A DNA stretch of 36,968 bases from a virus (Duplodnaviria; Heunggongvirae; Uroviricota; Caudoviricetes), in IMG/VR virus record IMGVR_UViG_2737471838_000003, positions 1 to 36,968 of that record; one strand, written 5' to 3'. Shown here in pieces: positions 21,453-22,438 of the stretch (positions are counted from its first letter, which is position 1; the number at the start of each line of letters is the position of its first letter). A program made the position numbers and the translations under genes. The notes beneath the pieces are model-generated. The model made no database searches and had not been told where the DNA came from. It saw only the letters and a list, made by a program, of their open reading frames with translations.

Positions 21453-21671
21453 ATGGCAAATTTTATACCACGCATTTTAGGACTGAAATCAGCCGAAAAG
21501 GAAATGCAACTTGCCGAGCGCATCGAAAAATCAGGCGCTACGGAAGTAGAAGTTGTTGGACGCGGTGGTGTGATAACTTCAAAACAAGCTCTCGCATCAT
21601 CTGAAACAGTTAAACTTATGAGATTTGAAGCGAAAAAAATAGTCGCTCAAACACCGACTAATAAAGAATAA
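21453..21671 (+). CDS. Hypothetical 72-aa soluble protein, first gene of a two-gene cassette of unknown function
   Basis: GGAGG SD before the ATG; AT-rich; its stop lies 2 nt before the ATG of the next gene. No recognisable domain. Confidence 0.55.
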   Translation: MANFIPRILGLKSAEKEMQLAERIEKSGATEVEVVGRGGVITSKQALASSETVKLMRFEAKKIVAQTPTNKE

Positions 21672-21673
21672 AT

Positions 21674-22438
21674 ATGTTTGCATTCTTGATTATTCCTTTG
21701 TTGGTGAGCGGTTTTATTATTATAACCACTCATCCATATCATTTTTACAGATTACATCGTTATGATGGACAACTTTTGTATATGAAAGCAGCAAAATACG
21801 GACTTTGGTGTCTGATTTGGTCTGTATTTATTGCTTTCGCAATCAAATATTACCTTCCTTCAGTTCATATTGTGACTCAAGTCTCACAATCATTGAGTTT
21901 AGGAGAAAATTCATATCAAAAAAGAATCACTGTCTGGTTGATCCTTCTTTCGTGTACATCTGTAGTAATTGCATGGCTGTCAGGTATAATTACGAATTGG
22001 TTTACAACTTTTCGTAGCCAAATGATTTATAAACTATTATATAAAAAAGATATAAGTATAGAAGATAGCAAAGAGTTAGTTAAATTAAGGACATTGCAAG
22101 ATTTAGTCACCGAAGGATCAATGGATAGTGTTTTTTTTGATTCACTGATAGATAGAAAATCAATTCTGATTAGTATGAATAACAAAAAAGTCTATGTCGG
22201 AATTGTCAACGCATTAGGAGAGCCAAATGAAAAAGACGGCCCAAACCAGCAAATTTCTATTCTTCCCATTATGTCTGGATACCGAGAAAAAGATACATTA
22301 AATGTATGCTTTACTAATGATTATAACAATATAGAAGATTATGATACAAGTGTTATCATTCCAGTTTCCCAGATCACTCAAGTTTCATGGTTCACCATTG
22401 AAGTTCATGATAAAGTTAATAACAACTGTAAAAGTTAG
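21674..22438 (+). CDS. Hypothetical membrane protein (about 3 N-terminal TM helices plus ~140-aa C-terminal soluble domain)
   Basis: 254 aa; hydrophobic segments FAFLIIPLLVSGFIIITT, GLWCLIWSVFIAFAIKYY, ITVWLILLSCTSVVIAWLSGII; translationally coupled to the upstream 72-aa gene; convergent with the ATPase-protease operon. Confidence 0.65.
   Translation: MFAFLIIPLLVSGFIIITTHPYHFYRLHRYDGQLLYMKAAKYGLWCLIWSVFIAFAIKYYLPSVHIVTQVSQSLSLGENSYQKRITVWLILLSCTSVVIAWLSGIITNWFTTFRSQMIYKLLYKKDISIEDSKELVKLRTLQDLVTEGSMDSVFFDSLIDRKSILISMNNKKVYVGIVNALGEPNEKDGPNQQISILPIMSGYREKDTLNVCFTNDYNNIEDYDTSVIIPVSQITQVSWFTIEVHDKVNNNCKS

Follow-up and report, generated by a model that had tools for sequence, protein, structure and literature searches.

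A co-evolving gene pair of a Rac-type Escherichia coli prophage, convergent with IetAS, as a candidate phage-exclusion module

The gene pair and its control elements

The DNA analysed here comprises positions 1 to 36,968 of the IMG/VR virus record IMGVR_UViG_2737471838_000003 (36,968 nucleotides, hereafter the window), and coordinates refer to this window unless another source is named. The window represents a Rac-type prophage located at ttcA in Escherichia coli. It contains two adjacent genes that encode a small soluble protein and a larger membrane protein, in convergent orientation with the genes of the defence system IetAS. Sequence comparisons make this pair a good candidate for a new phage-exclusion module. 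The genes and control elements of the locus are the following:

21343-21452, plus strand: upstream control region of the pair (left edge of a conserved block, conserved element, candidate hexamers and ribosome-binding site)
21386-21391 and 21410-21415, plus strand: candidate sigma-70 hexamers TAGGCA and TACAAT (consensus scan)
21453-21671, plus strand: small gene, ATG start, 72 residues (open reading frame listing)
21674-22438, plus strand: large gene, ATG start, 254 residues (open reading frame listing; phrog_3630, E 2.5e-72)
22463-22484, no strand assigned: G+C-rich hairpin with a stem of 9 bp, AAAGAGGCC-N4-GGCCTCTTT (terminator scan)
22487-24742, minus strand: IetS, an S8 serine peptidase whose gene converges with the pair (PADLOC IetS, E 1.2e-270; Pfam Peptidase_S8)
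24780-26000, minus strand: IetA, AAA ATPase (PADLOC IetA, E 2.3e-131; Pfam AAA)

The pair is a self-contained, translationally coupled operon of two genes. A ribosome-binding site GGAGG (21443-21447) is located 7 nt before the ATG of the small gene, whose stop codon TAA is followed, after 2 nt, by the ATG of the large gene. A first-pass annotation, made by a model from the letters alone, had described this locus as a cassette of a 72-residue soluble protein and a membrane protein with three transmembrane (TM) helices, and both open reading frames (ORFs) were recovered exactly as it had placed them. NCBI PGAP calls both products "hypothetical protein". Compared with a 79%-identical copy from Salmonella, the small gene has a ratio of non-synonymous to synonymous substitution rates (dN/dS) of 0.055 and the large gene one of 0.030, which indicates strong purifying selection; because these values are low, both ORFs can be considered as real coding genes. 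The cassette is also AT-rich like the adjoining defence operon, as had been noticed: the G+C fraction is 0.31-0.36 over positions 21500-22500 and 0.34-0.41 in the IetAS operon, whereas the backbone of the prophage is at about 0.50.

The pair had been supposed to depend on a promoter of its own between 21240 and 21450. A conserved four-gene block, described below, has its left edge at 21343 (BLASTN against islands of Salmonella and Citrobacter), and five lineages share a conserved non-coding element at 21393-21416, with invariant positions in the alignment at 21395-21415. In three of the five lineages (sisters), this element reads TTGTCA-N16/17-TATACT. The block edge and the conserved element speak for a promoter, but the promoter-like matches of the region are not above chance in the consensus scan (5 found, 7.4 expected). 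At the other end of the pair, the hairpin 22463-22484 falls inside the gap of 48 nt that separates the stop codons of the large gene and of ietS. Terminator-like sites are over-represented in the region (7 found by the scan, 1.1 expected), and a hairpin is present in the corresponding gap of 36-48 nt in all four diverged copies of the four-gene block. The bidirectional terminator that the first-pass annotation had attributed to the pair and ietS in common is plausible.

The two proteins and their families

At E ≤ 1, neither protein matches Pfam or NCBIfam. With PADLOC (version 2.0.0), the one match was weak and linked the large protein to HEC-01B (E 0.008, 13.9 bits). The system HEC-01 is composed of an ABC ATPase and of the TOPRIM protein HEC-01B (10.1101/2024.01.29.577857), and this identity was rejected: the matched region folds as an Sm-like beta-barrel and not as a TOPRIM domain, and the pair includes no ABC ATPase partner. 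In PHROGs, the small protein belongs to phrog_37504 and the large protein to phrog_3630, both without assigned function. No description of either protein was found in the literature searched, one relevant paper on the defence systems of E. coli prophages lying outside this search.

The large protein was modelled with AlphaFold2 from an alignment, with a confident result (mean predicted local distance difference test score of 86.4). The model contains helices at residues 3-24, 32-60 and 80-123, two short helices and a beta domain of six strands at residues 163-239, in agreement with the three TM helices and the C-terminal soluble domain that the first-pass annotation had proposed. Two regions of the protein stand out:

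21674-21802, plus strand: TM helix 1 and loop 1, the most conserved segment of the large protein (invariant alignment columns)
22118-22393, plus strand: Sm/Hfq/LSm-like domain (residues 149-240, placed in the cytoplasm), composed of an N-terminal helix and a bent beta-barrel

In the alignment of 67 homologues, TM helix 1 (residues 1-20, MFALLIIPLLVSG...) reaches 3.05 bits and loop 1 (residues 21-43, cytoplasmic, motif RLHRYDGQLLY) reaches 3.28 bits. Loop 1 has 23 residues in 67 of the 67 sequences and is basic, with 3.6 lysine and arginine residues against 1.1 aspartate and glutamate residues; the invariant residues of the segment are L27, R29, G32, Q33, L35 and G43. Loop 2 is of variable length (18-68 residues) and net acidic. 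Because of the positive-inside rule, the basic loop 1 and the acidic loop 2 indicate an N-out/C-in topology with the barrel in the cytoplasm. The large protein is thus predicted to be an inner-membrane protein with three TM helices, its N-terminus outside and its C-terminus inside the cell.

The C-terminal domain of the model corresponds to the definition of the Sm/LSm/Hfq fold, in which a strongly bent barrel of five beta-strands comes after an N-terminal helix. WYL sensor domains of defence regulators are also among the structural matches. The conservation of the barrel is 2.74 bits, with the conserved loops KVYVGxVxxLGEPNE and SGYR and the invariant residues Y174, G176, E186 and G202. This resemblance was seen by structure only: the profile of the large protein (A1) found no Sm match among the PDB sequences with HMMSEARCH and was linked to no solved structure, and the alignment of E. 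coli Hfq with this profile by HHalign has a probability of 0.1%. Unlike the known Sm, LSm, Hfq and WYL proteins, to which it has no detectable sequence relationship, the large protein has its barrel fused to an anchor of three TM helices. The first-pass annotation had recognised no domain in either protein and had proposed profile and structure searches; their outcome agrees with it as far as families detectable by sequence are concerned, but the C-terminal domain of the large protein has an Sm/Hfq-like fold.

MscS-type channels form rings and are composed of three TM helices in N-out/C-in orientation, followed by a cytoplasmic Sm-like beta domain. The overall layout of TM helices and cytoplasmic Sm-like domain is the same in the large protein; neither an MS_channel domain nor a structural match to MscS was found. 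One homologue of 322 residues (P0218) ends, after the barrel, in a DNA-binding domain of the H-NS type (…TWSGKGRRPKW…; Pfam Histone_HNS, E 1.2e-9). This fusion fits a cytoplasmic C-terminus, and it may be taken as a hint, but only a hint, of a link with nucleic acids. Several further homologues end in tails that are basic or rich in Trp and Lys.

The small protein is predicted to be soluble, with a fold composed of a helix, a beta-hairpin and a second helix. The residues V34, R37 and G38 (motif VVGRG) at the turn of the hairpin are invariant, and an N-terminal motif FGL is conserved.

The family of the large protein is large. A word-index search detected 117 clusters, all unnamed, and an exhaustive profile search recovered 2,776 representatives at 50% identity with E ≤ 1e-3, among which 1,550 reach E ≤ 1e-10. 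Of 113 members sampled, none has its core covered by a Pfam domain. The operon was compared in 42 species-representative genomes of Alpha-, Beta- and Gammaproteobacteria. The small partner is located directly upstream of the large gene in 39 of them, with a gap of −1 to 54 nt, and beside a broken large gene in 2 more. The pairwise identities of the two partners are strongly correlated (Mantel r 0.87; none of 2000 permutations as high). These comparisons identify the small protein as an obligate, co-evolving partner of the large protein, and the pair as an ancient operon within a large unnamed family. In the Pseudomonas phage vB_Pae_U5, the small partner was found at neither end of the record, a case that is uninformative because the record looks cut within or beside the operon. 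Decayed copies were seen only in Sodalis sp. (L068) and in a metagenome-assembled genome of Lautropia (L073), where the large gene is truncated or frameshifted and the small gene is intact. Two alleles of the pair occur in E. coli, in 3 and 17 of 5,426 complete genomes.

Genomic contexts and linkage with IetAS

In Yersinia prophages, in Salmonella SEN4/5 and in the Klebsiella phage ST15-OXA48phi14.1, the pair occupies the old/tin hotspot of P2-like elements, between gpA and the portal gene. This site has been experimentally validated as a defence hotspot (Rousset et al. 2022, PMC9122126). A bSEFIR gene (PADLOC, E 7e-103) comes after the pair in the Klebsiella phage. An identity with the 2TM-1TM-TIR system of Rousset et al. 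was considered and rejected, the TIR protein of this P2-like phage being bSEFIR according to PADLOC; the pair and gp15 of the same phage were not recognised by PADLOC, so that the association is one of adjacency and not of membership.

A second position, between int and attP (the phage attachment site), was found in the UV-induced phage phiES15 and in prophages of E. coli and Klebsiella. The corresponding integrase family is present in 412 complete E. coli genomes, 17 of which carry the pair, and the content of the slot is variable. In a sister prophage of an O103:H2 strain, the same slot contains AbiL (4888-6839; AbiLi E 4e-101, AbiLii E 5e-29). In E. coli CFT073 (4687-5875, minus strand) and SFE8, it contains a cassette of two genes encoding proteins of 127 and 271 residues and, in Ecol_AZ146 (4715-5494, plus strand), a single gene for a protein of 259 residues. 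PADLOC recognises none of these three; with their position in a slot that can carry AbiL, they are further defence candidates.

The pair was also detected on P4-type islands with int and AlpA, on integrative and conjugative elements (ICEs) of Legionella and Vibrio cholerae, and on plasmids of Salmonella (about 26 records, conjugative in most cases). In the one Salmonella plasmid inspected (IncC), a RecD-like helicase adjoins the pair. The neighbour survey covered 260 ORFs located within 4.5 kb of the pair in 33 distinct species contexts. The genes recognised by PADLOC include CBASS cyclase/TRIP13, IetA, MADS, AriA (PARIS), a type IIG restriction-modification enzyme, pAgo with SIR2, AbiEii and DrmC, among others, and seven integrases were identified with Pfam. 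A recognised gene lies within 4.5 kb in roughly a third of the contexts, a proportion that is approximate because the gene calls are crude and the output was at summary level. Placement in validated defence hotspots or next to known systems is thus recurrent and not universal. Neighbours of the MFS transporter and GGDEF types were considered as meaningful partners and rejected, their recurrence being about the background rate. Just downstream of the pair in Psychromonas sp. (L061, 11589-14694), there are four tandem PoNi-type genes, which confer immunity to polymorphic toxins.

The association with IetAS is of a different nature. The block 21343-26039 (4.7 kb), whose right end is located just beyond ietA (the annotated start of IetA gives a shorter protein of 389 residues, 24780-25949), is shared with Salmonella and Citrobacter islands at 79% nucleotide identity. 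Pectobacterium and Citrobacter youngae possess the same convergent arrangement of four genes, which 12 E. coli genomes carry in their P2 hotspot. There are thus five unrelated insertion contexts, namely the Rac-like prophage, a P4-type island, a Pectobacterium island, C. youngae and the P2 hotspot. The identities between the products of the window and their counterparts are as follows:

Salmonella: small protein 90%, large protein 89%, IetS 87%, IetA 87%
Pectobacterium: small protein 58%, large protein 54%, IetS 61%, IetA 57%
Citrobacter youngae: small protein 53%, large protein 55%, IetS 60%, IetA 55%

According to these identities, the pair and IetAS have co-diverged as a four-gene block down to about 55% identity in the enterobacterial clade of the window. 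Wherever an IetS at least 60% identical to that of the window was found, the pair accompanies it: the E. coli genomes with such an IetS number 15 and the viral contigs 6, without exception. Outside this clade the two distributions separate: 29 of the 35 viral contigs with the pair lack IetS, and the IetAS loci with 31-41% IetS identity lack the pair. The pair and IetAS can thus be considered as two separable modules that form a stable duo in one enterobacterial clade. Their co-divergence implies that the cassette may not be independent in this clade, where a joint or complementary action of the two modules is probable. The first-pass annotation had treated IetAS as a convergent neighbour; the orientation is as it described, but the adjacency is not incidental and has to be read as part of a co-diverging block.

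The pair shares no domain with IetAS, and has no Pfam or PADLOC match to an AAA ATPase or to an S8 peptidase. It differs from IetAS components also in being a separate transcription unit, in being absent from distant IetAS loci and in occurring mostly without IetAS. In Pseudoalteromonas sp. CR1 (L081, 1-8532), a single case, the pair may have become associated independently with another module of an ATPase and a serine protease. There the pair belongs to an island with an MmeI-type restriction-modification enzyme, an integrase and an HD-domain protein, and with a protein of 670 residues that has an IetA-like AAA domain (E 3e-30) and an SDH-type serine protease (weak NfeD match).

Other genes of the prophage surround the block. 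A Hok/Gef type I toxin gene (21110-21235, minus strand; Pfam HOK_GEF, E 2.7e-12) is located directly to the left of the cassette, and its mok/sok control elements are expected between this gene and the block edge at 21343. The Rfam scan of positions 19000-27000 gave nothing at gathering thresholds. Rac-type and lambdoid phages have a cargo slot that is bounded by the replication genes (ydaV/DnaC-like) on one side and by the DUF1367/DUF1364/Q genes on the other. In the E. coli phage vB_EcoS-683R6 (3342-6735), this replication-to-nin slot holds another IetAS subtype (31% IetS identity) that is not accompanied by the pair. The prophage has another moron position, flanked by the lysis genes and by the Q-like antiterminator (DUF1133, 19089-19631), where it carries an AT-rich regulator gene of the AraC/HTH type (18116-19012, minus strand) and, according to annotation, a tRNA-Arg near 17687-17762.

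Possible function of the pair

The first-pass annotation had compared the cassette to RexA/RexB. Homology was rejected (HHalign probabilities of 0.1% for the large-protein profile against RexB and of 0.3% for the small-protein profile, A3, against RexA), and the resemblance is therefore one of analogy, below 1% probability in terms of homology. What the two have in common is the layout: as in lambda RexAB, a soluble protein and a multi-pass inner-membrane protein are carried by a prophage and expressed apart from the lytic genes, and by analogy a cytoplasmic partner would control a membrane effector. The sizes are reversed (279 residues for RexA and 144 residues with four TM helices for RexB, against 72 residues for the soluble protein and 254 residues with three TM helices and an Sm-like domain for the membrane protein), and the gene order and the domain content differ. 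A homology with SieA of phage P22 was likewise rejected (HHalign, 0.3% against the large-protein profile). SieA is a protein of the inner membrane, 162-164 residues long and with three TM helices, which acts alone and bears the cytoplasmic motif FxRYPxEAxxFNK (PMC10883804). The large protein resembles it as a prophage moron product with three predicted TM helices; it differs by a conserved partner gene, co-diverging and present at 39 of 42 loci, and by an Sm-like domain of about 100 residues.

Taken as a whole, the explanation that we favour, with a probability of about 0.4, is that the pair is a mobile-element cargo serving inter-virus or anti-phage conflict by means of a ring-forming membrane effector. 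Its two components do not have the same weight: that the pair is a module of conflict, for defence or exclusion, is probable, and the ring-effector mechanism, drawn by analogy, is by itself rather doubtful. The domains of Sm, LSm and Hfq assemble into rings, and the large protein may form a ring for this reason. In such a scheme, the Sm-like domain would mediate the assembly of the large protein in the manner of Sm, LSm and Hfq, and the ring would bring together three TM helices per subunit, giving a channel-like effector. A surface for sensing or gating, perhaps directed at nucleic acid, might be made up of loop 1 (RLHRYDGQ) together with the loops GEPNE and SGYR of the barrel. The small protein would keep the effector closed, or report infection, through its invariant VVGRG hairpin. 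Upon infection, the effector would breach or block the inner membrane and cause abortive infection or halt genome entry.

The first-pass annotation had deduced a defence or exclusion role from context, and the placements in the P2 hotspot, in the slot shared with AbiL, beside bSEFIR, on ICEs and on plasmids now favour this role more strongly. The neighbourhood survey that it had called for gave a divided answer, with known defence genes nearby in about a third of the contexts and with stable sites in Pseudomonas. Several observations weigh against the conflict module. For about two thirds of the 33 contexts, no gene closer than 4.5 kb is a recognised defence gene; many flanks are composed of housekeeping genes, the remaining contexts being small islets among them. 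The pair occupies one syntenic chromosomal site in each of two Pseudomonas groups, that of P. oryzihabitans (8 species genomes) and that of P. luteola (3 species genomes), with aminotransferase, MFS, NasT and GGDEF neighbours and without marks of mobile elements. This synteny looks like the vertical inheritance of a resident function, and such a stable chromosomal site weakens a purely mobile, defensive interpretation.

The same observations are the basis of an explanation in which the pair has a resident membrane function outside conflict, for example in envelope homeostasis or in a process linked to RNA or nucleotides, that mobile elements merely carry along. The size and taxonomic breadth of the family (2,776 clusters) and the predominance of ordinary metabolic genes among the neighbours in species genomes agree with it, but the pair is patchy and rare in E. 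coli, is placed repeatedly in validated hotspots and is exchanged with AbiL in one slot; moreover, its low G+C content relative to the host indicates a horizontally acquired cargo. We hold this explanation to be highly unlikely. An addiction module, in which the large protein would be a toxin, the small upstream gene an antitoxin and the role that of stabilising the carrier element, is very unlikely. The order of the genes, their translational coupling and tight co-evolution, and their presence on plasmids, ICEs and prophages would fit a toxin-antitoxin system; the only two decayed loci have lost the large gene and kept the small one, and the neighbours of the pair, hok/gef and IetAS, were each originally described as a system of stabilisation or killing. 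Yet no similarity with a toxin-antitoxin family was found in Pfam, NCBIfam or PADLOC, and a stable, single-copy residence in Pseudomonas chromosomes needs no addiction. As toxin-antitoxin function and abortive infection are not exclusive, this reading partly overlaps the ring-forming conflict effector.

Two further explanations keep the conflict and change the mechanism. In the one, which we judge unlikely, the pair would ensure superinfection exclusion without cell death, the large protein blocking the entry of the incoming genome like SieA and the small protein being an assembly or regulatory partner. The type of membrane protein is that of SieA (PMC10883804), and the pair stands in lysogenic-conversion positions (int-attP in phiES15, the P2 old/tin slot) with an orientation and a candidate promoter of its own that fit expression from the prophage. 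The periplasmic loop 2 is the most variable part, by its sequence as well as by its length, as expected of a surface that meets diverse phage proteins; however, the strongest conservation is cytoplasmic (loop 1 and barrel). The absence of homology with SieA and the obligate soluble partner, where SieA acts alone, also count against it, and a family found on conjugative plasmids, on ICEs and at stable sites of Alpha-, Beta- and Gammaproteobacteria would be unusual for a phage-specific entry block. In the other, the pair would be a component of an extended IetAS system of four genes in the clade of the window, for example a membrane sensor or effector under IetS and IetA. IetAS is a toxin-antitoxin-like system of unknown mechanism, with validated variants in which a recruited accessory gene, ietH, is essential (PMC13069673), so that there is a precedent for such a recruitment. 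The co-divergence of the four genes to about 55% across five unrelated insertion contexts, the presence of the pair with every close IetS and, in Pseudoalteromonas, the proximity of the pair to an IetA-like ATPase and to a serine protease from a different class argue in the same direction. Against this, the pair forms a convergent transcription unit apart from IetAS, with a candidate promoter and a plausible terminator of its own, IetAS is missing from 29 of the 35 viral contigs that carry the pair and from all but one or two of the 33 species contexts, the IetAS loci at 31-41% IetS identity lack the pair, and shared mobility alone could account for the co-inheritance of a compact block of 4.7 kb. 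An extended IetAS system is quite unlikely on balance.

A bolder proposal combines the ring-forming conflict effector with IetAS, and we give it little credence. According to it, the pair would define a class of membrane-anchored Sm-ring proteins that sense a phage nucleic acid or nucleotide signal and open a pore; in the clade of the window, it would be the membrane arm of a four-gene system gated by IetS and IetA, for example through cleavage of the small inhibitor or of the variable linker. IetAS alone protects weakly and acts in synergy with the membrane system Zorya II (10.1101/2022.08.21.504612). Given this weak protection, this synergy and a mechanism that is unknown, a conserved membrane partner is a concrete lead. 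If the membrane arm were real, it would supply the mechanism of IetAS, as a protease-gated pore with a logic comparable to that of bacterial gasdermins.

What is new here, from comparative analysis, is the fixed link of the pair with one IetAS subtype, the two unnamed families and the new domain architecture. The cassette measures 1.2 kb, the four-gene block of 4.7 kb is present in E. coli strains, and phiES15, which carries the pair, is an inducible phage. If its role is defence or exclusion, the pair would add a system built from two families unnamed in Pfam, NCBIfam and PADLOC, with about 2,800 clusters at 50% identity in three proteobacterial classes. In the case of defence, three TM helices joined to an Sm-like barrel would represent an effector architecture previously undescribed in phage defence.

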